Shown: positions 1 to 30,351 of the stretch, piece after piece | How positions within the stretch are numbered: position 1 is the stretch's first letter | Layout: each line of letters starts with the position of its first letter | DNA from: a virus | Lineage: Duplodnaviria; Heunggongvirae; Uroviricota; Caudoviricetes | Direction: 5' to 3' (one strand) | DNA: 30,351 bases | Virus record (IMG/VR): IMGVR_UViG_2663763000_000012 | The notes under the pieces: generated by a model | Seen by the model: the letters and a program-made list of their open reading frames with translations, nothing else | Databases searched by the model: none | What the model was told of the DNA's origin: nothing | Position numbers and translations under genes: made by a program

Positions 1-42
1 TTAGATTTGACTGAAATCGTACAGTAAAAAGCGTACAATAAA

Positions 43-68
43 GGCTCCACGAAAGTGGGGCCTTTTTT
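43..68 (+). terminator. Putative rho-independent terminator (GGCTCCAC-GAAA-GTGGGGCC followed by TTTTTT)
   Basis: GC-rich imperfect hairpin followed directly by a T6 run on the + strand; lies in the noncoding region beyond the 3' end of ogr, where the prophage/host junction is expected. Confidence 0.4.
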
Positions 69-280
69 AGCACGAGAGCCTTTTTTGTCAGCTATCTATA
101 CTTTAAGGTGACTGCCAAAACAGACTCGACGTAGCCTTCGAGCTGCGCACCAACACGGCCTCAGATGGGCCACATCTGGAGAAACACCGCAATGTCAGTT
201 ATTGGTGACATTTTTTGATATCTAATCACATGAAATAAAAGGATTTATTTCTGGTCACGTCCACACATTGACCACATCGA

Positions 281-5730: not shown

Positions 5731-6831
5731 TTAATTGCTGTTAACCGAAGTGACCAGACTTGCCAGGTATCTGGAAGTAATACGCTGGCGCAGGGTCAGG
5801 TTTTCAAGAGGAGGCACCGGTGTATAGTCGTAGTCGATATACAGTTTTCCGGCCTTGAGGGTTTCCGCATCGTTGGATTCTTCGCTGAACCAGCAGGTCG
5901 CATCCACGATATAGCCGTTTGTTTTCAGCTCACGGAATTTGGCATTGATGCCGTCAACGATGTCGCGAATCAGCGTTGCGGTGATGGGCTTGTCCACCGC
6001 CCACATGTGCGCCTCAGCCATCGTGTCGGCCAGCACCTGCGCGGTGCGGGTGTAGTTTTCAAAGAGGAACAGCGGGTCATCAGAGCAGGTACGGTTACCC
6101 CAGAAGCGGAAACCGTCACGGCGAATCAGCGTAGTGACGCCTGACTCGTTAAGCAGGTCAGCATCGGTGCCGGACTCCTGCAAATCCCAGAATACAGATG
6201 CGCTGATGCCGGTAACACCGTTTACCCCGACGTTGGACAGCGTTTTATGCCAGCCCTGCTCCTGGTCGATTCTGGCACGCAGACCCAGCGCACGGGCGGT
6301 GGCATACGCGGTGGCGGTGGTACTGGTGACCGTATCCCATGCGCTGATATACCCGAAAGCGCGCAGCTTCTGACAGACTGATGCCAGTGCAACAGCCACC
6401 TCTTTGGTATCCAGCCCCGGCACACCGAGAATACGCGGTTTAACACCAGTTACCGACTCCGCCGCCAGCAGGGCTTTCAGTCCGGTGTACTGACCGTTTT
6501 CGTCGGTGGTGCCGATGATATTGGAAACGGTCTGCGCGAGCTTCGTTTCTTCGTCATCGCCGGTGCCCTCTTCCACGCGCACGACAACGGTGACCGGTTT
6601 TGACTGGTCAGCGATGGCCTGCAACGACGCCGCCAGCGTGCCTTTTTTACCGGCCTTTGCAATTGCACTCTGCACATTGGTAATCAGCACCGGTTTATTG
6701 AGGGGGAAGGTTTCCGCATCCGCATCGCTGGCCGTGCAGACCATGCCGACAATGGCAGTGGATACGGTGGAAATGACGCGGGTGCCGTCGTTAATCTCCA
6801 GCACCTGCACGCCGTGATGATAGTCACTCAT
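5731..6831 (-). CDS. FI: Contractile tail sheath protein FI
   Basis: 366 aa ORF, first gene of the FI-FII-E-T-U-D block; somewhat shorter than the P2 FI I remember (about 396 aa). Confidence 0.85.
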   Translation of the reverse strand: MSDYHHGVQVLEINDGTRVISTVSTAIVGMVCTASDADAETFPLNKPVLITNVQSAIAKAGKKGTLAASLQAIADQSKPVTVVVRVEEGTGDDEETKLAQTVSNIIGTTDENGQYTGLKALLAAESVTGVKPRILGVPGLDTKEVAVALASVCQKLRAFGYISAWDTVTSTTATAYATARALGLRARIDQEQGWHKTLSNVGVNGVTGISASVFWDLQESGTDADLLNESGVTTLIRRDGFRFWGNRTCSDDPLFLFENYTRTAQVLADTMAEAHMWAVDKPITATLIRDIVDGINAKFRELKTNGYIVDATCWFSEESNDAETLKAGKLYIDYDYTPVPPLENLTLRQRITSRYLASLVTSVNSN

Positions 6832-6890: not shown

Positions 6891-7484
6891 CTATTTGTCC
6901 CGGTTGGCTAAGGGATGACACAATTTATTCTTTGTCGCTGATGAGGGAAATTTTTTATAGAGCGTGGACAGACCAATATCAAAAATCAGTGCCACGCGTT
7001 GACGTGACTCCCCTGCAGCCAGCAAACGCCCGGCCTGCTCCCACTCACTCGTGGTGAGTTTAGGACGTCTGCCACCAATACGACCTTTGGCTCTGGCCGC
7101 TTCCAGCCCGGCCCGAGTCCGCTCGACAATGAGTTCTCGTTCCATTTCAGCCAGGGCACCCATCACATGAAAGAAAAAACGCCCCATCGGCGTGCTGGTA
7201 TCAATGGCATCCGTCAGGCTGCGAAAATTAATGCCGCGTTCGCGCAGCTCCTCAACCAGAATGACCAGATGCCGCATACTACGCCCCAGCCGGTCCAGCT
7301 TCCAGACTACCAGTGTATCCCCCTCCGATAATGTCCTGAGCAGTTTTTTCAGCCCCGGCCTGTCGGACTTCGTGCCGCTGATTTTATCCTCAAAAATCAG
7401 CTCACATCCTGCGCACTCCAGCGCGTTACGCTGCAATTCCGTATTCTGGTCATTTGTTGACACGCGGACATAGCCAATAAGCAT
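6891..7484 (-). CDS. Serine-recombinase DNA invertase (Gin/Cin/Pin/Hin family)
   Basis: N-terminus MLIGYVRVSTNDQ with the catalytic Ser motif of resolvase/invertase enzymes; C-terminal HTH region with ...STLYKKFP...; 197 aa; ATG at 7482-7484. Sits next to a tail-fibre region with oppositely oriented cassettes. Confidence 0.9.
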   Translation of the reverse strand: MLIGYVRVSTNDQNTELQRNALECAGCELIFEDKISGTKSDRPGLKKLLRTLSEGDTLVVWKLDRLGRSMRHLVILVEELRERGINFRSLTDAIDTSTPMGRFFFHVMGALAEMERELIVERTRAGLEAARAKGRIGGRRPKLTTSEWEQAGRLLAAGESRQRVALIFDIGLSTLYKKFPSSATKNKLCHPLANRDK

Positions 7485-7539
7485 GATGGATCCCCTGAAT
7501 AAAAACCGGGGATGATGCCAGTTAGCCGTAATCTCTGCA

Positions 7540-7565
7540 TTTTCTTAAACGTTGGTTTGGGGGAA
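7540..7565. other. Left crossover site (gix/cix-like 26-bp dyad) of the invertible tail-fibre segment
   Basis: TTTTCTTAAACGTTGGTTTGGGGGAA, imperfect dyad symmetry with AAAC/GTTT-containing half-sites; 20 of 26 positions match the inverted copy at 9345-9370, including a 10-nt identical core TTGGTTTGGG. Confidence 0.55.
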
Positions 7566-7901
7566 TTGGCTCTGGCTGGCGCAACAACCGGCGCTATGTT
7601 GGTGAATGGGTATGTAGCAATTCCATTAATTATTTCTGGCGTTCGGAGACCACTTATTATCCAGTGGGGAGTGGGGCAGTTTGGGGGAAGTCTGGGGGAT
7701 GATGCGGGATATTTAAACAATTTCCCTTTCGCTTTTCCGTCGGCGTGCTACGTGATGGTTGCCAGCCACGTGGGGCATACACCTTCGGGTGCCGGAATAC
7801 TATCTGCTTCCGCAATCACAAAAAGCGGCTTTCGTGGTTTTTCCAGCGTAGCGACTGCCGCAAATCCTGTATCGGGCTGTTATGTTGCTATAGGAGGGTG
7901 A
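7566..7901 (+). other. Promoterless alternative tail-fibre C-terminal cassette (Sv'-like), currently in the non-expressed orientation
   Basis: Open frame on the + strand running straight through the left crossover site (...NVGLGELALAG...), with no credible start of its own. The GLGE junction motif is shared with tail fibre H (...AYLGLGEG...) at the right crossover site. Stop at 7899-7901. Confidence 0.6.
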
Positions 7902-7902
7902 T

Positions 7903-8337
7903 GTGTTTTTTAGTCCATCTTTAAATATTTTTGTGAATCCTGCGCTTAAGGATGACTACATCAATGTAAATTCATGGCCAGATGATGCTGTTGAAGTTGA
8001 TGAGCAGGTGTATATTGAGTTTTCCGGATTACCGCCGAAAGGAAAAATCCGTATCGCTGGGGAAAATGGTTTTCCTGCATGGTCTGAAATTCCACCACCA
8101 ACGCATGAGGAACAGATTGCCGCAGCCGAATTGAAAAAACAGCAATTGATTAATCAGTCCAACGAATATATGAATACCAAGCAATGGCCTGGTAAAGCGG
8201 CTATTGGTCGTCTGAAAGGTGAGGAACTGGCGCAATATAATTTGTGGCTGGATTATCTGGACGCACTGGAACTGGTTGATACCTCCAGTGCTCCAGATAT
8301 TGAATGGCCTACGCCTCCGGCAGTTCAGGCCAGATGA
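7903..8337 (+). CDS. Alternative tail fibre assembly chaperone (U'-like)
   Basis: 144 aa, GTG start at 7903 preceded by AGGAGG (7892-7897); C-terminus ...DTSSAPDIEWPTPP... parallels the C-terminus of the minus-strand chaperone (8309-8902, ...DTSTAPDVIWPELP...). The two genes converge and overlap at their 3' ends. Confidence 0.7.
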   Translation: MFFSPSLNIFVNPALKDDYINVNSWPDDAVEVDEQVYIEFSGLPPKGKIRIAGENGFPAWSEIPPPTHEEQIAAAELKKQQLINQSNEYMNTKQWPGKAAIGRLKGEELAQYNLWLDYLDALELVDTSSAPDIEWPTPPAVQAR

Positions 8338-8902
8338 CATCCGGCGCGGTGCTCGTATCTGTTGCCGTCACCGCGTCAATGTAATCAAGCACGGCGTTAA
8401 GCCGGGTGGTTTCTGCCTGCGTCAGCTTCCGCCCGGCCTGTAATTTCAGCTGAATCAGACTGATGGAAGCCATTGCAGCATCAATCAGTGACTGGCGCTG
8501 TGCTTCTGCCGCTTCTACTGCGGCACCGTGTTGTGCCTCAGTATCTGTCACCCATTTCTCACCATCCCATTTATCATATGGCGTTAACGGTGAAAGCGTG
8601 ACATAACCGTTTTTGATGGCACCGATATAATCCACTGTAACAGCAGCACCATTTTCGATTGAGTAAACAGTCTCATTGCGATGGTCTTCTTCATGGCTCC
8701 ATCCCTTACCTGTAAATACTGCCACTCTTCCCGGAATGTTTTCGCCAGGGTCAATACCAGTGGAACAGGCGGGCATACTTACGCCAGTATTAATATATTC
8801 ATCAGACCAGCCCGTATACTCAGATGTTTCAGCATCATAATAAAAACAACGCATATCGCCCGGCACTGTAGCCAGCCCATTTTCATCAAAAACAGGTTTC
8901 AT
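8309..8902 (-). CDS. G: Tail fibre assembly chaperone (G/U-like), expressed orientation
   Basis: 197 aa, ATG at 8900-8902 overlapping the H stop; SD-like GGTGAGGG upstream; conserved C-terminal DTS.AP motif shared with the alternative copy. Confidence 0.85.
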   Translation of the reverse strand: MKPVFDENGLATVPGDMRCFYYDAETSEYTGWSDEYINTGVSMPACSTGIDPGENIPGRVAVFTGKGWSHEEDHRNETVYSIENGAAVTVDYIGAIKNGYVTLSPLTPYDKWDGEKWVTDTEAQHGAAVEAAEAQRQSLIDAAMASISLIQLKLQAGRKLTQAETTRLNAVLDYIDAVTATDTSTAPDVIWPELPEA

Positions 8903-10185
8903 TATTTAGCCCTCACCAGAAAGTTAAATGCAATATTTCGCGGTCTGACAGCAACAAAATTCACACCATCACCCACAGAGTTACTGGTGAAATTAAATCG
9001 TGAAAATCCTGGCTGATTTCCGGCGATGCCATCATGAAAGTTAATTGCGTGTCCCGCACCTCCGCCTATATTCCCGGCAAACTGAGAAAAGTTTGTAGCT
9101 TCCTGCCAGCTTAATAATTCGCGACCACCATCGGCACCTCGCCCGTCATCCCAGATACGAATGAAATCACCGCGGGCTTCAGGTAATACCAGTGAAGGAA
9201 ACACTTTCGCCAGCACAGGGTAATCAGAGGCAGAAAATTTCGCCCCGTTGAACTTCAAAAACACCATACTGGACCAGCTGTCGATTACAGTATTTGGCAT
9301 TGCAGCGGACGGCCAGAAGAACGGAACGCCAATAGCTGGAGCACCTTCTCCCAAACCAAGGTATGCGAGAAGACCAGCTACATCCTTTCCACTCAAATGA
9401 GTCAGCGTCTCATCCAGTGGCTGCTTACCTGACAGCGCATTGTTAATGGTGGTACTGAATTTCGGGTCATTGTTGATAGCTGCGGCAATTTCTTTCAGTG
9501 TGTCCAGCGTGTCAGGGGCACCGTTAATCAGAGCGGTAATAGCGGCCTGTACAAACGCAGTGGTCGCAATCCGCGTGGTGTTATTTCCTGCGGCAGGCGT
9601 CGGCGCTTTTGGTTCTCCGGTAAATGTCGGATTATGTTTCTGTGCATACTGGGTATGAGGATCCTGTGCGGCAATATGGTTTCTCATCTGGTCATCCACA
9701 TACAGCCTTAACTCCAGGACTTCATCATCCACGTATTTACGGGTCGCCAGTACCACCGACGGGTCGATTTTCAGCGTGATGGCTTCGGTATTCGTGACAA
9801 CCAGAATCATGCGGATAGTCTGGGTACGACCACTGCCTTCCTGCAACTGCGGTTTGTACGTTTCCGGGCAGTTCGCCACCGCAATGAGTACGCCTTCATC
9901 ATCATAAAGCCCAATCTCACGGATCCAGAATCCGCCCTCGTTCTCAGGGATGATTTGCTCCGCAATAATCTGGCTCTGGTTGTTCGGGTCAACACTCAGA
10001 AGATTCAGCGGCGCGATGCGTTTCTGGTTAATAAGTTTTGTCTGTGCCGGGTCTGGTGTCGGCAAGACACCATTTGCATCACCAACGGCCATTTGCGTCA
10101 GATTCAGCTTACTGCCGAGCATCGTCGCGTTAGCCAGCCGTGCCGCGCCCTGATTAGTCAGAATGGCGTAGTATTTCACTGTCAT
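8902..10185 (-). CDS. H: Tail fibre protein H (constant N-terminus fused to the currently selected variable C-terminus)
   Basis: 427 aa; N-terminus MTVKYYAILTNQGAARLANA...MAVGDANG resembles the conserved P2 H / Mu S N-terminal region; start overlaps the I stop (ATGA). The crossover site lies inside the coding sequence at about codon 265. Confidence 0.85.
   Translation of the reverse strand: MTVKYYAILTNQGAARLANATMLGSKLNLTQMAVGDANGVLPTPDPAQTKLINQKRIAPLNLLSVDPNNQSQIIAEQIIPENEGGFWIREIGLYDDEGVLIAVANCPETYKPQLQEGSGRTQTIRMILVVTNTEAITLKIDPSVVLATRKYVDDEVLELRLYVDDQMRNHIAAQDPHTQYAQKHNPTFTGEPKAPTPAAGNNTTRIATTAFVQAAITALINGAPDTLDTLKEIAAAINNDPKFSTTINNALSGKQPLDETLTHLSGKDVAGLLAYLGLGEGAPAIGVPFFWPSAAMPNTVIDSWSSMVFLKFNGAKFSASDYPVLAKVFPSLVLPEARGDFIRIWDDGRGADGGRELLSWQEATNFSQFAGNIGGGAGHAINFHDGIAGNQPGFSRFNFTSNSVGDGVNFVAVRPRNIAFNFLVRAK
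9345..9370. other. Right crossover site (gix/cix-like), inside tail fibre gene H
   Basis: Minus-strand sequence TTCTCGCATACCTTGGTTTGGGAGAA; inverted relative to the left site; half-sites TTCTCGCATACC and TTCTCCCAAACC show dyad symmetry. Confidence 0.55.
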
Positions 10186-16211: not shown

Positions 16212-16955
16212 TTAACTGGCTTTCTTTTTCGGGCGTCCACGTTTTGCCGGTGTCACGCTCCGGGTCTTACGCGGGGCGCGGGTGGCCGCTTTGGGCTGCG
16301 GCTCCGGCTTCGGTTTCAGCTCCCGCTCCAGTCGTTCAATCTCTTTTTTGACGCCTGCCTGACAGTCGAGCTGTGTCGCACGTTGCAGGTGTGCCAGCGC
16401 CCCTGCGGCATCACCAGCGTCACGCAGAAACAGACCGGTGATTTTGTGCAGCTTTGCGCGCACTTCATCAGGCATGTCAGCCGTGGCGGTCAGTTCAAGG
16501 GTGTCCGTCAGCAGTCGGGTATCCACAGACTCACCGGCAGCGTGGGCACGCATGGCCGCGAGTGCCACCTCCTCGGTGAACATGTACGGCGGGGTGCGGC
16601 GGTGTTTACCCGGCATGGTCAGACCGTACTTCAGGGCATAACGGGCAATCTCCAGCGCACCGGCAATATCGCCGGTATCCAGACGCCACAGCATGACCGT
16701 CATCAGAATGTCATCCTGTGCACCTTTGCCCTGCTCCAGCACGCCGTTCACCCACGGCAACCAGAACGGCAGCAGTTCGCGCTTTTTCGCGGCCTTAAGC
16801 TCTTTTGAATAAATCGCTTTCAGTGTGCGCTGGTCTGCGGCGAGCTTAACCAGCATCTGCTCATAGACAGTTGCATGTCGCAGCGGGGCGGCTTCCCGCT
16901 GCGCGGTCATCGCTGCCGAGACCCGCATCATGTGGCGCTGTGCGGGACTCGTCAT
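16212..16955 (-). CDS. M: Terminase endonuclease (small) subunit M
   Basis: 247 aa with a basic Lys/Arg-rich C-terminal tail; position after N. Confidence 0.88.
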   Translation of the reverse strand: MTSPAQRHMMRVSAAMTAQREAAPLRHATVYEQMLVKLAADQRTLKAIYSKELKAAKKRELLPFWLPWVNGVLEQGKGAQDDILMTVMLWRLDTGDIAGALEIARYALKYGLTMPGKHRRTPPYMFTEEVALAAMRAHAAGESVDTRLLTDTLELTATADMPDEVRAKLHKITGLFLRDAGDAAGALAHLQRATQLDCQAGVKKEIERLERELKPKPEPQPKAATRAPRKTRSVTPAKRGRPKKKAS

Positions 16956-19118: not shown

Positions 19119-20891
19119 ATGACCATCACCACAGACACCACTCTTTTACACGACCCGCGTCGTCAGGCGGCGCTGCTGTACTGGCAGGGGTTTTCCGTGC
19201 CGCAGATTGCCGCCATGTTGCAGATGAAACGCCCGACGGTGCAGAGCTGGAAACAGCGCGACGGCTGGGACAGCGTTGCTCCCATCAGCCGTGTCGAAAT
19301 GAGTCTGGAAGCGCGGCTGACCCAGCTCATCATCAAACCGCAGAAAACCGGCGGTGACTTCAAGGAAATTGACCTGCTCGGACGCCAGATTGAACGACTG
19401 GCACGGGTAAACCGCTACAACCAGACCGGCAACGAGGCAGACCTTAATCCGAACATCGCTAACCGCAACAAAGGCGGGCGGCGCAAACCGAAAAAGAATT
19501 TTTTCAGCGACGAGGCTATCGAAAAGCTGGATCAGATTTTCTTTGAGCAGTCTTTCGACTATCAGTTGCACTGGTATCGCGCCGGGCTTGAGCACCGCAT
19601 CCGCGATATCCTGAAATCCCGCCAGATTGGCGCGACGTTTTATTTTTCCCGCGAGGCGCTGCTGCGCGCCCTGAAAACCGGTCATAACCAGATTTTTCTG
19701 TCGGCCAGTAAAACGCAGGCGTATGTGTTCCGCGAATACATCATCGCCTTTGCCCGGCTGGTTGACGTTGACCTGACCGGTGACCCGATTGTCCTGGGCA
19801 ATAACGGCGCAAAACTGATTTTTCTCGGCACCAACTCCAACACCGCGCAGAGTCATAACGGCGACCTGTACGTCGATGAGATTTTCTGGATCCCGAATTT
19901 TCAGGTACTGCGTAAGGTGGCATCAGGTATGGCCTCACAGAGTCACCTGCGCTCGACCTATTTCTCCACCCCGTCCACGCTGGCGCACGACGCCTACCCG
20001 TTCTGGTCGGGTGAACTGTTTAACCGGGGACGCGCCAGCGCCGCCGAACGCGTGGAAATCGACGTCAGTCATAACGCCCTTGCCGGTGGGCTTCTCTGTG
20101 CGGACGGCCAGTGGCGACAGATTGTCACCATTGAGGACGCCCTGAAAGGCGGCTGCACGCTGTTCGACATTGAGCAGCTCAAACGCGAAAACAGCGCCGA
20201 CGATTTTAAAAACCTGTTCATGTGTGAATTTGTTGACGACAAGGCATCGGTGTTCCCGTTCGAGGAGCTGCAACGCTGCATGGTCGACACGCTGGAAGAA
20301 TGGGAAGACTATGCGCCGTTTGCCGCCAATCCGTTCGGCTCCCGCCCGGTATGGATTGGTTACGACCCGTCACACCGTGGCGACAGCGCCGGATGCGTGG
20401 TACTGGCACCGCCGGTGGTGGCCGGTGGCAAATTCAGAATACTTGAGCGTCACCAGTGGAAAGGCATGGACTTTGCCACTCAGGCTGAATCCATCCGCAA
20501 ACTCACCGAGAAATACAACGTCGAATACATCGGTATTGATGCCACCGGCCTCGGTGTCGGCGTGTTCCAGCTCGTGCGCTCGTTCTATCCCGCCGCACGC
20601 GACATCCGCTACACGCCGGAAATGAAAACCGCAATGGTGCTCAAGGCAAAAGACGTTATCCGCCGTGGCTGTCTGGAATATGACGTCAGCGCCACCGACA
20701 TCACCAGCTCGTTTATGGCTATCCGCAAGACCATGACCAGCAGCGGACGCAGCGCCACCTATGAGGCCAGCCGCAGCGAGGAAGCCAGCCACGCCGACCT
20801 CGCCTGGGCGACCATGCACGCCCTGTTAAATGAGCCACTCACCGCCGGTATCAGCACCCCGCTGACATCCACCATTCTGGAGTTTTACTGA
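19119..20891 (+). CDS. P: Terminase ATPase (large) subunit P
   Basis: ATG at 19119-19121 preceded by GAGGTA; MTITTDTTLLHDPRRQAALLYWQGF...; about 590 aa; stop overlaps the Q start (TGATG). Confidence 0.9.
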   Translation: MTITTDTTLLHDPRRQAALLYWQGFSVPQIAAMLQMKRPTVQSWKQRDGWDSVAPISRVEMSLEARLTQLIIKPQKTGGDFKEIDLLGRQIERLARVNRYNQTGNEADLNPNIANRNKGGRRKPKKNFFSDEAIEKLDQIFFEQSFDYQLHWYRAGLEHRIRDILKSRQIGATFYFSREALLRALKTGHNQIFLSASKTQAYVFREYIIAFARLVDVDLTGDPIVLGNNGAKLIFLGTNSNTAQSHNGDLYVDEIFWIPNFQVLRKVASGMASQSHLRSTYFSTPSTLAHDAYPFWSGELFNRGRASAAERVEIDVSHNALAGGLLCADGQWRQIVTIEDALKGGCTLFDIEQLKRENSADDFKNLFMCEFVDDKASVFPFEELQRCMVDTLEEWEDYAPFAANPFGSRPVWIGYDPSHRGDSAGCVVLAPPVVAGGKFRILERHQWKGMDFATQAESIRKLTEKYNVEYIGIDATGLGVGVFQLVRSFYPAARDIRYTPEMKTAMVLKAKDVIRRGCLEYDVSATDITSSFMAIRKTMTSSGRSATYEASRSEEASHADLAWATMHALLNEPLTAGISTPLTSTILEFY

Positions 20892-21925
20892 TGAGCAAGA
20901 AAAAAGGGAAAACACCGCAACCTGCGGCAAAAAAAATGACCGCCAGCGCCCCGAAAATGGAAGCATTCACCTTTGGTGAGCCGGTGCCGGTACTCGACCG
21001 CCGTGACATTCTGGATTACGTCGAGTGCATCAGTAACGGCAGATGGTATGAGCCACCGGTCAGCTTTACTGGTCTGGCAAAAAGCCTGCGTGCTGCCGTG
21101 CATCACAGCTCACCAATTTACGTCAAACGCAATATTCTGGCCTCGACATTTATCCCGCATCCGTGGCTTTCACAGCAGAATTTCAGCCGCTTTGTGCTGG
21201 ACTTTCTGGTGTTCGGTAATGCGTTTCTGGAAAAGCGTTACAGCACCACCGGTAAGGTCATCAGACTGGAAACCTCACCGGCAAAATATACCCGCCGTGG
21301 CGTGGAGGAGGATGTTTACTGGTGGGTGCCGTCCTTCAACGAGCCGACAGCCTTCGCTCCCGGCTCCGTGTTTCACCTGCTGGAGCCGGATATTAATCAG
21401 GAGCTGTACGGCCTGCCGGAATATCTCAGCGCCCTTAACTCTGCCTGGCTGAATGAGTCGGCCACGCTGTTCCGCCGCAAGTATTACGAAAACGGCGCTC
21501 ATGCCGGATACATCATGTACGTCACCGATGCCGTGCAGGATCGCAACGATATCGAAATGCTTCGCGAAAACATGGTTAAGTCGAAAGGCCGCAATAACTT
21601 TAAAAATCTGTTTCTCTATGCCCCACAGGGGAAAGCCGACGGCATTAAAATTATCCCGCTCAGTGAAGTGGCAACGAAGGACGATTTTTTTAATATCAAA
21701 AAAGCCAGCGCCGCTGACCTGCTGGACGCGCATCGCATCCCCTTTCAGTTGATGGGCGGCAAGCCGGAGAACGTCGGGTCACTGGGAGATATTGAGAAAG
21801 TGGCAAAGGTCTTTGTCCGCAATGAGCTTATCCCGTTACAGGACAGGATTCGGGAAATAAACGGCTGGCTCGGTCAGGAGGTCATCCGCTTTAAAAACTA
21901 CTCACTGGACACTGACAACGACTGA
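20891..21925 (+). CDS. Q: Portal (capsid portal vertex) protein Q
   Basis: 344 aa ORF immediately after P and followed by a terminator and cos; size matches P2 gpQ. Confidence 0.9.
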   Translation: MSKKKGKTPQPAAKKMTASAPKMEAFTFGEPVPVLDRRDILDYVECISNGRWYEPPVSFTGLAKSLRAAVHHSSPIYVKRNILASTFIPHPWLSQQNFSRFVLDFLVFGNAFLEKRYSTTGKVIRLETSPAKYTRRGVEEDVYWWVPSFNEPTAFAPGSVFHLLEPDINQELYGLPEYLSALNSAWLNESATLFRRKYYENGAHAGYIMYVTDAVQDRNDIEMLRENMVKSKGRNNFKNLFLYAPQGKADGIKIIPLSEVATKDDFFNIKKASAADLLDAHRIPFQLMGGKPENVGSLGDIEKVAKVFVRNELIPLQDRIREINGWLGQEVIRFKNYSLDTDND

Positions 21926-21930
21926 ACATC

Positions 21931-21952
21931 GCCGCCTGCGGGCGGCTTTTTT
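21931..21952 (+). terminator. Rho-independent terminator after Q
   Basis: GCCGCC-TGCG-GGCGGC hairpin followed by TTTTTTT, 6 nt after the Q stop codon. Confidence 0.65.
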
Positions 21953-22094
21953 ACAACCCGCCATCACGCCCTCACACGCTCACCACCGCACAAAACAGCC
22001 CGCAGACACACCAACGCCCCGGCTAACAATCTAAACGCCATCACGACGCGCTCAGACGCTGAAAAAATAAAATCAGCACCACCGCCAGCGCGCA

Positions 22095-22113
22095 GTGCTT
22101 TCCCCGCCTCGCC
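22095..22113. other. cos: cos cohesive-end site (19 nt)
   Basis: GTGCTTTCCCCGCCTCGCC is the exact reverse complement of the P2 cohesive-end sequence as I recall it (GGCGAGGCGGGGAAAGCAC); it lies just beyond Q, where cos sits in P2. Confidence 0.8.
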
Positions 22114-22268
22114 CGCCCGCCCGCTTCATGGGTCGGTTTGAATGCAGTTGAATTACAACTACCAAACCAAGCAATCCCTACTATTACGCAGAAAATGCAT
22201 ACTGAAATACCTCGTGCAAATTGATGCAGCTAAGTATGCATAGGTTTTATGCCTCAACGTATACGTTA

Positions 22269-24101
22269 TCAAACAGAGCCCTGTTCAAAAACAGTATCAA
22301 AATATGGTAGGAGAGGATAAGCACACAGAAAGAAAATCAGGATGCATGCATATGTCGTTGTTTCATCGTAACAAGCATTAGTATATAAATTACCATGTGC
22401 TAATTTATGTCTTAAGGTTGCCCCACTCTTTCTGTTAAAAAGAACATCGATAGTCAAAACAAGATTTTTAGAAAAGATACTTTCCAAATCATCTCTGCAT
22501 TTATCTAGAAGCTGAGAAATACTTGTTGACTCCTCTAATCCCTTATCCAAATATCTAGTAGCATCCTTTCCGCTAAGCTCATAATAATAACGAACCATAC
22601 CTTCCATTTGTGGTATTAAAAGATAAGCTGCACTGATGTAATCTCCCTGCCATAATTTGTAAAAGCCCAAATTAAAAATCTCCCTAAACTCCGGCTTGAC
22701 AATTGGACTAGTTGTAACCAATTTAACGAATGTTGACAACGTCAAGCCATGTTCTTGAGAAAGTACATAGCGAGCAGGTTCAAAGACACCGTTTACAAAA
22801 ATCTTATGAGTAATCTCGAAATTTCTTAGATATTGATCAATAACAACATCATCACTCATATATTTTTTATTATCCAACGGCGGGATTGTATATATCTTAC
22901 GCCCACTCTCATCATTAATTTCTGTTCCAACAAAACTAGAGAATAAACTTTTTTCTGATAATCTTAAAACTTGTTCCCTCATGCTTTCAATATTTTCAAT
23001 CGGTGTTTCACTCATTAAAACTTTGAATATATCGGGCAAAGAACGCCCCGTCAGTTTTTTTTCACTTTCAGCAACCAAGTCACTAATATCAATAGAATGG
23101 CTTAAAGTGACATATTCACTCCTTACTTCTTCTCTCAAATTAGCAAGTTGTTCCTTTAAATCTTCTATCTGTTGGCTATCACCACCGTACTGTCTTAATT
23201 CAGAGATAGCTGTTCTTAACCAAGAGATCTTACCCATATTATCAGGTCGTTCTGTTGCAACTTTAATAGTAATATTTGCAGATGCCAGTTTACATCTCTT
23301 GGCACGTTCATACTCACCATTTTTTTCATAAATAACTGCACTTGTCATATAAAGTGATTTTACAGCATCATAATATTTTTTATCTTTATGCTGCTCAGCC
23401 ATCTTCTCAGCATTTTCCGCATACTGCAGATTATACCCATCAAAATCACGCACCATAAACCAAGTCAAATTATTGAAACCTTCAAAGATTAATCTTTCAT
23501 TTTGAATACTATAAAGAGAATGAATGGCATTTTTAATCGCCATGTTTCCTTCTGATTTTCTAGGGTAGACCATTTTATTAATGTGCAAAGCCCTAGCAAT
23601 ATAATCACGAGCAAAAATAAAGCAATTTAAATCACTTTCATCCATGCTTTCGTTTTTTATTATTAGCTTTTCAATTGCTATATTTAGCATTTCAGCATAG
23701 GAATCAATTGCTTTAATTGCCACGTCTTTATTTTTCCGATTATTACACCAAACAACATCATATATTCTTGATAACAAAAATGGATTGGTTATTTTTTGAG
23801 AAACATATAAAAGACAGTCATTCACCTGCTCATCAAAATCTTCAGGCAATATTGATCTTTTATTACCCCAAATCATTTGGGGTTCAAATGATGGAGTGTT
23901 GTTAACAACTTGCAAATTGAAACTATATAGCATACCAAAAAGAGATGCTAATTTTTTCTCTTTGGGGTTTTCTGATGACTCAGCAATCCCATCCAGATAT
24001 TTTTTTATTTTATGTGCATGAAATGTAACTGGTATATGCATAAAAACACTATAATCTAGTGTTTCAAGCTCTTCCCTTGTAAGAACAAAGATATCATTCA
24101 T
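22269..24101 (-). CDS. Large AT-rich cargo protein of unknown function; candidate anti-phage defence/abortive-infection effector with a C-terminal HEPN-like R-x4-H motif
   Basis: Continuous ORF (645 codons from a TTG at 24204-24206; 610 aa from the ATG at 24099-24101, which has an AAGGTG Shine-Dalgarno 7 nt upstream). Strongly AT-rich compared with the flanking prophage. Occupies the tin/old accessory locus between cos and gene A. Motif LRHKLAHG at 22395-22412; no Walker A motif seen. Confidence 0.75.
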   Translation of the reverse strand: MNDIFVLTREELETLDYSVFMHIPVTFHAHKIKKYLDGIAESSENPKEKKLASLFGMLYSFNLQVVNNTPSFEPQMIWGNKRSILPEDFDEQVNDCLLYVSQKITNPFLLSRIYDVVWCNNRKNKDVAIKAIDSYAEMLNIAIEKLIIKNESMDESDLNCFIFARDYIARALHINKMVYPRKSEGNMAIKNAIHSLYSIQNERLIFEGFNNLTWFMVRDFDGYNLQYAENAEKMAEQHKDKKYYDAVKSLYMTSAVIYEKNGEYERAKRCKLASANITIKVATERPDNMGKISWLRTAISELRQYGGDSQQIEDLKEQLANLREEVRSEYVTLSHSIDISDLVAESEKKLTGRSLPDIFKVLMSETPIENIESMREQVLRLSEKSLFSSFVGTEINDESGRKIYTIPPLDNKKYMSDDVVIDQYLRNFEITHKIFVNGVFEPARYVLSQEHGLTLSTFVKLVTTSPIVKPEFREIFNLGFYKLWQGDYISAAYLLIPQMEGMVRYYYELSGKDATRYLDKGLEESTSISQLLDKCRDDLESIFSKNLVLTIDVLFNRKSGATLRHKLAHGNLYTNACYDETTTYACILIFFLCAYPLLPYFDTVFEQGSV

Positions 24102-24117
24102 CGTTTTCACCTTTTTC

Positions 24118-24148
24118 AGTATAAATTTGCACACATTATTATTAGCAA
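24118..24148 (-). promoter_or_regulatory. Putative sigma70-like promoter for the cargo gene
   Basis: On the minus strand, TTGCTA then a 19-nt spacer then TATACT, just upstream of the ATG at 24101. The spacer is longer than optimal, so this is weak. Confidence 0.3.
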
Positions 24149-24220
24149 CATAACTATCAATAGTTAACACATGCAGATAAACAGCAATTTTACTATTATG
24201 CAACAAATTAAATCAGATGT

Positions 24221-26503
24221 TTATTGCTCTGAATAACAATAAAACCAACTCCACTCATCAGCGACCGGATACGTAAATTTTTTCCCGTTGTAATTTACGA
24301 TCGCGCCACGCGCCAGCGCCTCAAGCTCCCATCGCTGCGGCCTGATACCGTTCTGAGCAAGGTCAACGCGGATACGGGTAATTTGCATTCTTTCCGACCG
24401 GGTCAGTCTGGCCGATGGCGCTATTTCATGCGGTTTTAACGGTCTTCCGTTTCTTTGCTGACGGTTTGGTCTTCTCAGGCCGTGTTTTAATGCGCCCCTG
24501 AGCGCCCTCACGACCTCCGGGTCATTCCATTCGATAACACCGTCATCAACCAGATTAAGCACTGCTGCGGCGTGCTCAGAAGGCGTGGGAGCCGGTAACG
24601 AAGTATCACCACCGGTGAGCTTTCCACAGTTATTGACAGGACTCCGAGGCGCGGCGATGCCGCTTTTTAAAGTCAAAGGCTCAACGACCGGAACTTTCGG
24701 AACAATGCGCCACTCCGTCGTTCTGGTGATATGAATATGGCGCGCGCCGAGATGCGGCGCGTAAATGCCGACCACTCTCTCGACTTCTTCCTCGTACTCG
24801 TTAACTTCATCCGACGGGCTACGGGCGACCCTGACAGTCTGACAATCGCGCTGGACATTTGCCCCACCCTGCGCGCTGATATACAACGCAAAATCACCAC
24901 TGTCTGCGGCGGCGCGTGCAGCCTCGACGCGCTCGTCAAACTCATCAGCAATGCTGACGCCGCGAGGCAATTTGCGTAGTTCACGGTAAGCCCCCATTGT
25001 CGGCAGGCCAACCGTTTTAAATTGCGGGATGCGCCACGTTGACGCCCATGCGGTAACAGCCGCTGCAGTGTCTTTCAGCGGCCTGCCGGTGTCGTTATCG
25101 AGCTGACCATCCAGTGCATAACCGTCGATGTTTTTTGAAATGTATTTCGCGATATATCCCGCAGCACCGCCCCGGTTAAGGTGTTTTGCCTGAAAACGGT
25201 TTCGCGCGGCTCCTCTTTCGTCGCCATCCTCTTTGAGCGCATAGCGGCGCATGATTTCGATAATCTGGTTACGCTGGCGTGGATTACAAAAAAGCATCAT
25301 ATGCCAGTGCGGCGTTCCGTCGTGGTGTGGCTCGACGACTCGCAAACCGTAGACCTGTAAATCATTATCCTTGAATGCCGTGCGCATCAGGCTCCAGATA
25401 CGGCAGAGATAACGCTGCGCATCCTTTGGATTAAATGCCTCATCGTTCCAGCCGTGATTAAGCTGGACGGTTTTATTTTCGCCTTTTCCGACCTGACGTG
25501 TCGGGTGATACTTTGACGGCGCGGTAAGCGTGATAAACATCCCCACATCACCCTCTGCGGCGGCGTAACGCTCAATACCGGCAATGGTGTTCATCAGCTC
25601 CATCCGGCGAATTTCTGGATTAGAAATACTGCCCATCACCTTACTGATAAGGTCGATGCGCTCGCCGGTTTCCCTGTTTTCAAGGTCACACGATTTAAGA
25701 AATTCCAGATTTGCCTGGCGGCGCGCACGCACATCACGAATGGCATGTTTACTGGCATAAGGAGAACGGTCTTTATTGACCTCCCCGACAGCAATCAGTA
25801 ACGCCTCATGCCAGCGCATACGCTGGCCTTTAAGCTGACTAATCCACCACTCATCGTTAAACAGACGGGCAATGGCAGAATATGCCTGCCTCGTGGTCAT
25901 CTGTCCTTTACGGTATTTTTTCCAGTAGAGCGGGGAAATATTGAAAGCACGTGCAGCGCCAGCAACATGACCATACAGGTGAGCCTGCGCCTCATCCGTA
26001 AACAGCGATTCTTTTTCACCATGCGCATCAACCCATGCATCGCAGAGTTCCTCATACATCATGAAAAGCTGCGATGAGATACGGGCGGCAAACTTTTTCA
26101 GCTCCTTGTCATTCATTCCAGGCAGGCGCGCATAGTGGCCACGCTCTGCCAAAAACAGCAACGACGCGTCGGTGTTCATTTCATGGCGCTGATTCACGCG
26201 CTCAATGCGCGGCCATAAACGACGCTGAAAAGTGGATGTGAGGAAATAAAACCCGTGCACCGGGCTTTTATTGCGCCGGATGTAGTCATAGCGTGAAGTA
26301 AACAGCGAACGCAAAAAGTAAGGCAGGCGGTTAATCGTGGATAAAACACCTTGCACCTGACGCATCTCGTCACGTGTAAGGGGTCTTTCGCGCCCGACGG
26401 CCTCGCGTGGCGCGTTCCATGCATAAGCACCGGTAAACGTCTTACCGGTGCCTGCGGCAAATGCTGACGGAGGGACAAAACGCCCGGAGGCTTTAACGGC
26501 CAT
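24221..26503 (-). CDS. A: Replication initiation protein A (rolling-circle replication endonuclease)
   Basis: ATG at 26501-26503 gives MAVKASGRFVPPSAFAAGTGK...; about 760 aa; the ORF-track start at 26545 is a TTG extension. The largest early gene, in the position of P2 gene A. Confidence 0.9.
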   Translation of the reverse strand: MAVKASGRFVPPSAFAAGTGKTFTGAYAWNAPREAVGRERPLTRDEMRQVQGVLSTINRLPYFLRSLFTSRYDYIRRNKSPVHGFYFLTSTFQRRLWPRIERVNQRHEMNTDASLLFLAERGHYARLPGMNDKELKKFAARISSQLFMMYEELCDAWVDAHGEKESLFTDEAQAHLYGHVAGAARAFNISPLYWKKYRKGQMTTRQAYSAIARLFNDEWWISQLKGQRMRWHEALLIAVGEVNKDRSPYASKHAIRDVRARRQANLEFLKSCDLENRETGERIDLISKVMGSISNPEIRRMELMNTIAGIERYAAAEGDVGMFITLTAPSKYHPTRQVGKGENKTVQLNHGWNDEAFNPKDAQRYLCRIWSLMRTAFKDNDLQVYGLRVVEPHHDGTPHWHMMLFCNPRQRNQIIEIMRRYALKEDGDERGAARNRFQAKHLNRGGAAGYIAKYISKNIDGYALDGQLDNDTGRPLKDTAAAVTAWASTWRIPQFKTVGLPTMGAYRELRKLPRGVSIADEFDERVEAARAAADSGDFALYISAQGGANVQRDCQTVRVARSPSDEVNEYEEEVERVVGIYAPHLGARHIHITRTTEWRIVPKVPVVEPLTLKSGIAAPRSPVNNCGKLTGGDTSLPAPTPSEHAAAVLNLVDDGVIEWNDPEVVRALRGALKHGLRRPNRQQRNGRPLKPHEIAPSARLTRSERMQITRIRVDLAQNGIRPQRWELEALARGAIVNYNGKKFTYPVADEWSWFYCYSEQ

Positions 26504-28318: not shown

Positions 28319-28566
28319 ACCCTCCGGCTTTTCAGAAAGGTCAGAGCCTTTTTTAACGGACTCTGTTTTTTGGTGCGGATAATGATTCCCTTACGCCCCT
28401 TACCGTGGGTAATGGTGAAGTCAATCGCCCTGGGGCTTTCGTTACGCAATAACTGAGCAATACAACGAGGCTCGTTCATCCTTTCCACCTTAAGCCGCAC
28501 GGCCATGTCTTGATTTGCTGTAACTAATGCGATTTTTCCAGTCATGCCATTCTGTCGGAGCTTCAT
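28309..28566 (-). CDS. Hypothetical small early protein (orf78-like position)
   Basis: ATG at 28564-28566 (the ORF-track start at 28569 is TTG); basic C-terminus; overlaps the 3' end of the cox-like gene, so the true start may be further downstream. Confidence 0.45.
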   Translation of the reverse strand: MKLRQNGMTGKIALVTANQDMAVRLKVERMNEPRCIAQLLRNESPRAIDFTITHGKGRKGIIIRTKKQSPLKKALTFLKSRRVWK

Positions 28567-28846
28567 CAACTAGTTGGGCTGCGTACTTGTCCCACTCACG
28601 GCGATTAATCCATAACTCAGCATGACCGCCCGGCTTTAATGGGTCCGTCATATAAAAGGCTGGTAACTTGCCTGCTTTCGCCATTTCAGCAACAGCACGA
28701 GGCGTCTTACCGATGTAAAGAGCAAATCCCTCTTTCGAGAGCAAATCCGACGGTGCGGCTGCAAGTTTGATGTCACATTTTTTACTTTTTGTGAGATCAG
28801 ATACTTTTTCTCCAACATCGTTATTCATTTCTGATCCAATACTCAT
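28490..28846 (-). CDS. cox: Cox-like excisionase / early-operon regulator
   Basis: Segment ...FALYIGKTPRAVAEMAKAGKLPAFYMTDPLKPGGHAELW... resembles the P2 Cox helix-turn-helix region as I recall it (IGK..AV..M..GKLP....MTDP); first gene of the early operon, divergent from C; ATG at 28844-28846 with GAGGA upstream. The N-terminus is longer than P2 Cox, so the start is uncertain. Confidence 0.65.
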   Translation of the reverse strand: MSIGSEMNNDVGEKVSDLTKSKKCDIKLAAAPSDLLSKEGFALYIGKTPRAVAEMAKAGKLPAFYMTDPLKPGGHAELWINRREWDKYAAQLVDEAPTEWHDWKNRISYSKSRHGRAA

Positions 28847-28950
28847 TTTGATATCCTCAACTTTGGTGCCATTCAACCAGAGCTATTTGAAGCCGCTCTG
28901 CGTTGTTCTGGTGTGTCGCATACAACATAAATTACGAGATACGACAATTC
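28847..28950. promoter_or_regulatory. Immunity switch region (divergent Pe/Pc promoters and operators) between cox and C
   Basis: 104-bp intergenic region between divergent cox-like and C genes; contains direct heptamer repeats ATACAAC (28919-28925) and ATACGAC (28939-28945) spaced 20 bp apart. Confidence 0.45.
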
Positions 28951-29262
28951 ATGTCAAATACACAAATCACATCTCAAGCAGAGAAACTCGCACTTATTCG
29001 GGAGTCAGAAAGAATGACAAGGAAGCAAGTTGCTGAATTAACTGGAATTAACTACAACACCTATGCTGGATATGAGCAGGGAAAAGTAAAGATGTCTTTT
29101 GACGCAGGCATGAAATTTTTCAAGCCTGAAAGATTTCGCAAGTACCGTGACTGGTTCATGTTTGATGAAACTGATCCCGCTGGCGGACAAATAGCCCCGG
29201 CGCTCGCGCACATTGGGCAAGACTCAACAACCTTGCACCACTCAGACCAAAAGACTGGCTGA
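28951..29262 (+). CDS. C: Immunity repressor C
   Basis: ATG at 28951 (the ORF-track start at 28903 is TTG); MSNTQITSQAEKLALIRESERMTRKQVAELTGINYNTYAGYEQGK... has an HTH and the C-terminal GQIAPALAH motif I recall from P2 C; about 103 aa. Confidence 0.85.
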   Translation: MSNTQITSQAEKLALIRESERMTRKQVAELTGINYNTYAGYEQGKVKMSFDAGMKFFKPERFRKYRDWFMFDETDPAGGQIAPALAHIGQDSTTLHHSDQKTG

Positions 29263-29355
29263 CGATTTATTCAGCATATGTATGCAGTAAATGTACGAAA
29301 GAAAATTGCATTAATTTTCAAGTAGTAGAAGTAAACAGCGTCATCGGAGGGCTTT

Positions 29356-30351
29356 ATGTCTATTAAAAAGCTCGATGATGGTCGTTATGAAGTGGACGTC
29401 AGACCGCAGGGTGCAGATGGAAAACGTATCAGGCGGAAATTTAAAACTAAAGGTGAAGCTCAAGCATTCGAACGTCATGTACTGGTTAACTACCACAACA
29501 AAGAGTGGCTGGAGAAGCCAGCCGACCGCCGAACTCTTACAGAGTTGTTAGGCAGATGGTGGATATATCACGGAAAATCACATGAGCGTGGAGATATTGA
29601 ACGGGGGCGTTTGACGACAATAATCGCCAAATTTGCAGAAATGGTAGTGTCCAGAGCTGACCAGCTAACAAAGAAAACGATAACTGATTATCGCGTTGTA
29701 ATGATGAACGATGGTCTAAAACCAGCCAGCGTAAATCGGCATCTGGCAATAATGAGCGGGATGTTCACCAAGTTAATTGACGCCGGTGAATACCATTCTC
29801 ACAACCCGTTCCGTGAGGTTAAGCGATTACGTGAAGCTGTTACAGAAATGGCTTTTTTGTCCAGTGAAGAGATTACACGGCTGTTATCCATGCTCGATGG
29901 TGATGAATTAAATGCGACTCTGGTCTGCCTTTCTACTGGTGGACGCTGGAGTGAAGTGTCTAATTTAAAAGCTGAACACATCATTAACCAGATGGTTACG
30001 TTTATGAAAACTAAAAACGGAAAGCGCAGGACAATTCCCGTTTCGCAGGACCTGATTAAACGGATCAAGACCAAAAATTCAGGCAGGCTTTTTAATGCCA
30101 GTTACTACAAAGTGCGCAACGCTCTCAGGGAAGTAAAACCCGATTTACCTGACGGACAGGCAGTGCATGTTTTGAGGCATACATTTGCCACACATTTTAT
30201 AATGAATGGAGGTAACATAATCACATTGCAGCGCATCCTGGGTCATTCTAACATTCAGCAAACTATGACCTACGCACACTTTGCACCGGATTTCTTACAA
30301 GATGCAGTGACTCTTAACCCGGTGTCAGGAATGTCCATAATGCGTCCATAA
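29356..30351 (+). CDS. int: Tyrosine integrase (P2 Int family)
   Basis: 331 aa, ATG preceded by GGAGG; catalytic-type motifs TGGRWSE, HVLRHTFATH and TMTYAHF (R...HxxR...Y); the stop TAA is the last codon of the window. Confidence 0.92.
   Translation: MSIKKLDDGRYEVDVRPQGADGKRIRRKFKTKGEAQAFERHVLVNYHNKEWLEKPADRRTLTELLGRWWIYHGKSHERGDIERGRLTTIIAKFAEMVVSRADQLTKKTITDYRVVMMNDGLKPASVNRHLAIMSGMFTKLIDAGEYHSHNPFREVKRLREAVTEMAFLSSEEITRLLSMLDGDELNATLVCLSTGGRWSEVSNLKAEHIINQMVTFMKTKNGKRRTIPVSQDLIKRIKTKNSGRLFNASYYKVRNALREVKPDLPDGQAVHVLRHTFATHFIMNGGNIITLQRILGHSNIQQTMTYAHFAPDFLQDAVTLNPVSGMSIMRP

Follow-up and report, generated by a model that had tools for sequence, protein, structure and literature searches.

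In phages P2 and 186, circular monomers of the phage genome are cut by the terminase proteins gpM and gpP together with proheads, through two nicks placed 19 nt apart that leave 5' overhangs. The conserved cos of P2 and P4 is 55 bp long (PMC9594776; PMC9122126), and sequences flanking this core improve transduction (PMC9122126; PMC9594776). P4-like satellites borrow the terminase and the capsid of their helper (PMC9122126). The locus between gpA and gpQ that adjoins cos was described by Rousset et al. (2022) as a hotspot of anti-phage cargo (PMC9122126).

The DNA considered here, a stretch of 30,351 nt that we call the window, carries at 22095-22113 what we take, with a probability of roughly 0.93 and leaving function aside, to be the P2-type cos of an integrated P2-like (Peduovirus) prophage. 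As read from the sequence, the identity of the 19-mer, its flanks, its position and the presence of the cognate genes are the grounds for this assignment, and nothing argues against it. With the cos of P2 (AF063097) the site shares the 19-nt cohesive end, both conserved flanks and the position after Q and its terminator tQ; in both phages it faces a non-essential right-end locus, and the terminase and portal proteins of the two show 99% identity. It departs from P2 in that P2 lacks the extra GGCG/GGGC found here between a conserved 29-nt block and the nick (55 bp against 59 bp), and in that the P2 genes old and tin are transcribed away from cos, whereas the DUF7380/DUF4209 gene of the window is transcribed towards it. 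The cos sites of P4 (NC_001609) and 186 (U32222) have the same core architecture, P4 with the same 19-mer as well, and in both the spacing is canonical, unlike in the window. Unlike the window, P4 has flanks that diverge outside the core and encodes no terminase, and 186 has a different overhang sequence. The hotspot next to cos in P2 (PMC9122126) resembles the locus in the window in holding foreign AT-rich cargo between gpA and gpQ, with nothing notable that differs. What the P2 cos reads, where it lies and which cargo hotspot adjoins it are matters of textbook or published knowledge. We regard the site as a known element in an already-sequenced prophage lineage; cos regions of this kind are common in E. 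coli, with a match in 2,093 of 5,426 complete genomes (~39%; BLAST).

The cohesive end, the core and its flanks

The string GTGCTTTCCCCGCCTCGCC occurs a single time in the window, on the + strand at 22095-22113. Its reverse complement GGCGAGGCGGGGAAAGCAC, which is how the - strand reads across this cohesive end of cos, is identical to the ends of P2 and P4: it makes up nt 1-19 of AF063097, annotated 'cosL; left cohesive end', and again nt 33575-33593 of the same record, annotated 'cosR', and the identical 19-mer stands at nt 1-19 of P4. The cohesive end of 186 differs from it at 2 of the 19 positions (17/19 match). The first-pass annotation had recognised the string as the reverse complement of the P2 cohesive end, and comparison with the AF063097 reference finds the two identical; since both ends of that record exactly match the reverse complement of the window string, this identification was correct, and the idea of a mistaken P2 19-mer is rejected. 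An exact 19-mer is expected by chance about 2e-7 times on either strand of 30 kb. In the linear records fiAA91-ss, P24A7b and S164 the first base is the equivalent of window position 22113, and position 1 of fiAA91-ss carries the annotation cosL. No second cos, whether P2-type or satellite-type, was found at up to 3 mismatches on both strands of the whole window.

A conservation profile built from 160 unique, aligned IMG/VR cos regions places the strongly conserved stretch at about -30 to +26 around the first nick, where TGCATTAAAACCGnCCnnnnAAGCGGGCG is followed by the 19-mer and then by TGCGCGC. This block is common to P2, P4 and 186, and it agrees with the published 55-bp core of P2 and P4. 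On the basis of the profile and of the comparison among these three, the core in the window lies at 22088-22146 and measures 59 bp against 55 bp in P2 and P4. In P2 orientation it consists of TGCATTCAAACCGACCCATGAAGCGGGCG, an extra GGCG, the 19-mer and TGCGCGC, the P2 equivalent being AF063097 nt 33545-33593 joined to nt 1-26. On the right-end side, the 29-nt block TGCATTAAAACC...AAGCGGGCG is present within 22114-22146, with a few substitutions between window and P2 (TGCATTCAAACCGACCCAT against TGCATTAAAACCGCCCCGT, respectively), and on the left-end side the TGCGCGC block is present at 22088-22094.

The left-end flank (22043-22094, - strand) corresponds to nt 20-71 of P2; it is kept in P2-like helpers and absent from P4. 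P2-like helpers share a further ~50 nt on the Q side of the core, whereas P4-type copies do not and depart from the window sequence after TGCGCGC. Thirty nt of this flank are identical in 90 of the 173 cos sites sampled. Matches to P2-like phages extend beyond cos and stop near 22150-22160. Inside the flank, directly after the cohesive end, the - strand has a weak hairpin followed by a T-run (22091-22076), a terminator-like element that points along the direction of transcription of the cargo gene. The flank and hairpin may act either as a terminase-binding flank or as a read-through terminator for the cargo gene.

Packaging genes, cargo locus and integration site

The portal gene Q (20891-21925, +) encodes a protein aligned over 344/344 aa at 99.1% identity to P2 gpQ (Pfam Phage_portal). 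Just beyond it, at 21931-21953 (+), lies tQ, the Rho-independent terminator of the P-Q operon, a hairpin of six GC pairs with a T-run, at a position equivalent to that of the annotated tQ of P2 (nt 160-181). The earlier placement of cos just downstream of Q and its terminator is therefore borne out. Upstream of Q is gene P (19119-20891, +) for the large terminase subunit, the ATPase/nuclease (590/590 aa, 99.5% identity to P2 gpP; Pfam Terminase_5, Terminase_6N and Terminase_6C), and gene M for the small terminase subunit lies at 16212-16955 on the - strand (247/247 aa, 98.8% identity to P2 gpM; Pfam Phage_term_smal). The terminase genes were said to be intact, and at full length and 98.8-99.5% identity to P2 they and the portal gene are. 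The O, N and L products are ~99% identical to those of P2. Beyond the cargo, the replication initiator gene A (24221-26503, -), which with Q forms the conserved borders of the hotspot, aligns with P2 gpA over 759 aa at 96.4% identity (Pfam Phage_GPA).

When all P2 proteins were compared with the window by tblastn, a near-complete P2 gene set was found, collinear and in reverse orientation. The - strand carries ogr, D, U, T, E, FII, FI, J, W, V, S, R, the lysis genes, X, L, M, N and O in this order; then come P and Q on the + strand, cos, the foreign ORF, A, orf83-80, B and a divergent cox/C/int module, the int end coinciding with the end of the window at 30351. The window thus corresponds to the P2 map reversed, in the prophage permutation, running from ogr and D to O, then P and Q, cos, the cargo, and A to int. 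As in P2, cos sits beyond Q and tQ at the junction with the non-essential right-end region, and both where packaging starts and how the map is oriented follow from it, as the first-pass annotation held. The window lacks equivalents of the P2 accessory genes orf30, fun(Z), orf91, tin and old. The tail-fibre gene H encodes 427 aa, against 669 aa in P2, and is divergent past its N-terminal domain.

The cargo gene (22269-24101, -), transcribed towards cos, encodes 610 aa with DUF7380 (5e-39) and a weak match to DUF4209, which is of HEPN type; its stop at 22269 lies 155 nt beyond the 19-mer. The GC content is ~33% across 22160-24220, against ~54% elsewhere in the window. The product matches PADLOC PDC-S39 at 2e-83, and at aa 564-569 it carries RHKLAH, an Rx4H motif of HEPN type. 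DUF4209 has been placed in the HEPN superfamily (PMC3710099). The protein is near-identical to cluster 13, 'DUF4209', of Rousset et al., for which they count 193 occurrences. It is equally close to the 'Putative HEPN' of E. coli S88 that they cloned as pFR103, one of the 'additional tested systems' of their Table S2B (PMC9122126). At the domain level, DUF4209 and RHKLAH make the product a putative HEPN protein and give only a hint of anti-phage function. The variable locus lies between A and cos/Q, as the hotspot requires, and the statement that an AT-rich cargo gene adjoins cos holds, at the published gpA-gpQ hotspot. Because Rousset et al. (2022) describe this same locus, the placement of the cargo beside cos is real yet already published.

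The whole window is 99.9% identical to the prophage of E. coli 2013C-4974 at pflA-pflB (NZ_CP027587.1, ~725.4-755.8 kb), with 8 SNPs and 3 indels between them. They agree in the cargo gene that they carry, in where they are integrated and in the surroundings of cos. Unlike the window, the prophage of 2013C-4974 has the canonical two-unit cos and a full-length FI and is without the 9-bp insertion at 7902-7910; the three indels are accordingly the gain of a cos unit, this 9-bp insertion and the loss of 90 bp, in frame, from the tail-sheath gene FI. Window positions 1-193 are host DNA, made up of the downstream terminator of pflB and the upstream region of pflA; every one of the 5,426 complete E. 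coli genomes had a match to part of the window. A 13-bp att repeat, GTCAGTTATTGGT, follows at 194-206, and its partner in E. coli 2013C-4974 is located 168 bp outside the window, on its right-hand side. Since this repeat is the start of pflA (ATG TCA GTT ATT GGT), the phage was inserted into the first codons of that gene. The cos had been described as lying inside an integrated prophage, and because host DNA from pflB-pflA and the att repeats bracket the phage, it is indeed internal to one. In E. coli 2013C-4974 the second att copy stands 168 bp past the int stop, the phage DNA gives pflA a new 5' end and an N-terminal extension, and pflA is annotated there as 265 aa.

The immunity and integration module (28541-30351) is far from that of P2, with identities of 53% for int, 48% for C and 35% for cox, whereas the structural and replication genes are 92-100% identical to P2. 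Because this module is distant and the other genes are close, we consider the phage a heteroimmune relative of P2 with a different attachment site. At the position of P2 Z/fun there is a Mu G-segment-like invertible tail-fibre module (6891-9371). It contains a serine invertase (6891-7484, -), an alternative fibre tip with Gp53-like_C (7512-7901, +) in the opposite orientation, an alternative assembly chaperone (7903-8337, +) and imperfect inverted repeats at 7540-7577 and 9334-9371, one of which lies inside the fibre gene H (8902-10185). The 9-bp insertion at 7902-7910, TGTGTTTTT, falls in the spacer between the alternative fibre-tip and chaperone genes.

An extra tetranucleotide unit, cleavage and packaging competence

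At 22110-22121 the + strand has the tandem run (CGCC)3, which is (GGCG/GGGC)3 on the - strand, whereas the unit occurs only twice in P2, in P4 and in every other copy. The additional CGCC/GGGC abuts the predicted - strand nick. In P2 orientation, with the cut marked by a slash, the window reads ...GAAGCGGGCGGGCG/GGCGAGG... against ...GAAGCGGGCG/GGCGAGG... in P2 and P4, so that the conserved 29-nt block is pushed 4 bp, or ~0.4 helical turn, from the cut. The GCAT block lies at -32 from the nick in the window only and at -28 in 159 of the 160 unique IMG/VR regions. Measured otherwise, the gap from TGCATTMAAAC to GGGGAAAGCA is 30 nt in the window and 26 nt in all 207 other copies fetched from IMG/VR, GTDB representative genomes, metagenomes and reference records, the gap pattern having been validated on the window and on the fetched loci. 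This 26-nt spacing is an empirical invariant of the present analysis rather than a published definition.

Copies off this spacing, with a gap of 16-25 or 27-36 nt, numbered zero in IMG/VR. Exact scans for the three-unit pattern gave no hit in IMG/VR (at least 120 for the two-unit control), in GTDB representatives (7 for the control) or in metagenome contigs (at least 120 for the control), and by BLAST the three-unit form was absent from the 5,426 complete E. coli genomes, where the 96-nt cos region is matched over its full length at 95.8% identity at best, the 4-nt gap being the sole difference. The three-unit spacing thus appears to be unique among the collections searched. The first-pass annotation had called the cos exact and intact; this is true of the 19-nt overhang, which is exact, and does not extend to the 55-bp core, which has the 4-bp duplication at the nick. 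Because the inserted unit copies the repeat beside it, the sequence from -7 to +19 about the canonical nicks stays the same.

Let us consider how such a site might be cut. After excision and replication, the phage would be present as a circular genome with a single cos, and the terminase, gpM as the small and gpP as the large subunit, would recognise the ~55-bp core together with proheads bearing the gpQ portal. Two nicks 19 nt apart, at 22114/22113 on the - strand and 22094/22095 on the + strand, would then yield a linear chromosome with 5' GGCGAGGCGGGGAAAGCAC overhangs, the virion chromosome having its Q/P end on the left and the cargo gene on the right. These nick positions, and the mechanism with them, are inferred from the annotation of the P2 and 186 records and from what is established for the two phages. 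The start of the linear phage records at the equivalent of 22113 gives indirect support for such a staggered cut. As the duplicated unit shifts the conserved 29-nt flank by 4 bp, normal cutting of this cos is in doubt, and three outcomes are possible, namely normal cutting, inefficient cutting or an overhang of 23 nt. In lambda, the yield falls and the nicks are displaced when the distance from the nicking site to the terminase-binding site is changed (PMC4856287). We found no P2-specific spacing mutagenesis data in the secondary literature on P2 cos requirements, and lambda is for this reason invoked as an analogy only.

The other change that bears on particle production is in FI (5731-6831, -), where an in-frame deletion of 90 bp, with its junction at ~6336-6343, removes 30 codons corresponding to aa 164-193 of P2 FI, within the Phage_sheath_1 domain. 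The deletion is bordered by an 8-bp microhomology. The stretch is represented in 1,521 E. coli genomes, none of which shows the deletion and all of which carry the 90 bp more. It probably inactivates an essential tail gene. The intact cos and terminase genes had been taken to suggest that the prophage, or a satellite using it, is packaging-competent; given the 4-bp insertion in cos and the unique 30-codon deletion in FI, such competence is not assured. Heads might be filled, and the production of infectious particles is doubtful. The part concerning a satellite also has to be given up, as P4-type satellites have their own cos core and use the terminase of the helper, not its cos.

How the extra unit is to be understood depends on which of several readings is adopted, and the evidence is not of equal weight for all of them. 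That the 19-mer came from a P4-like satellite or arose by chance, and is not the prophage's own cos, seems to us extremely improbable. P4 does share the identical 19-mer and the 29-nt block; on the other hand, the flank past TGCGCGC is of the P2-helper type seen in 90 of the 173 sampled copies and not of the P4 type. Next to the site stand the genes Q/P and A, members of a complete P2-like set, and no other P4 genes were seen among the window ORFs. A satellite cos is rejected on this flank and these genes and because satellite neighbours, of the psu/gop side, are missing, and a chance match is rejected because the window has one site within 3 mismatches at an expectation of ~2e-7. A quite different possibility is that the additional 4 bp are an artefact of sequencing or assembly in a GC-rich tetranucleotide repeat and that the true cos is canonical. 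No collection searched holds a second example of the variant, and the length of a (CGCC)n run, such as the one in which it lies, can be miscalled. Against this stand the facts that replication slippage produces the gain of a whole unit, that the other two indels, 90 bp lost between repeats of 8 bp and 9 bp gained, are atypical of read errors, and that all P2-homologous genes compared are full-length and in frame, without the frameshifts of an error-prone assembly. Because these genes are in frame and the other indels are unlike read errors, we hold an artefact to be unlikely, at a level that still deserves attention.

The remaining reading accepts the site as a cos by descent and the 4-bp duplication as real, and supposes that the duplication impairs or shifts cleavage and that the prophage, with its FI deletion, is defective or decaying. 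It is one that we put forward tentatively, at somewhat less than even odds. Under it the site might be cut poorly or not at all, or an overhang of 23 nt might arise if the - strand nick follows the displaced 29-nt block. The invariance of the spacing elsewhere, as seen in the -28 position of GCAT and in the 26-nt gap, argues for it, as do the lack of any off-spacing copy in IMG/VR and the absence of the three-unit form from every collection searched. The balance of 8 SNPs to 3 indels against the closest relative fits slippage in an unselected prophage, and the FI deletion, with its microhomology and its absence from the E. coli genomes compared, points the same way; the lambda precedent for spacing sensitivity adds an analogy. 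Two observations run counter to impaired cleavage: local recognition could still work, as -7 to +19 is unchanged, and the head and packaging genes are all intact. Taken by itself, the pattern of indels agrees with mutations of the slippage type in a prophage on which selection is relaxed. A more specific proposal is that, the gain being real, the prophage is a natural cos-spacing mutant: terminase may no longer cut the site, so that the packaging-site lesion and the sheath deletion would leave the prophage 'locked in', or the - strand nick may follow the displaced block and give 23-nt ends. This we offer as speculation that we consider on balance improbable.

Meaning of the site for the prophage and for P2 terminase

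The identification of this cos adds little new knowledge, and its value is one of annotation, in that it gives the packaging site, the orientation and the boundaries of the cargo locus. The sole unusual point is the singleton 4-bp duplication in a core of otherwise invariant length, found beside a unique deletion in the tail sheath. If both are real, the cos duplication and the FI deletion suggest a prophage that is starting to decay. The duplication, if real, is also a natural spacing mutant with which one may ask how P2 terminase positions its nicks, and 23-nt ends, if they are formed, would reveal which flank positions the nuclease of P2 terminase.
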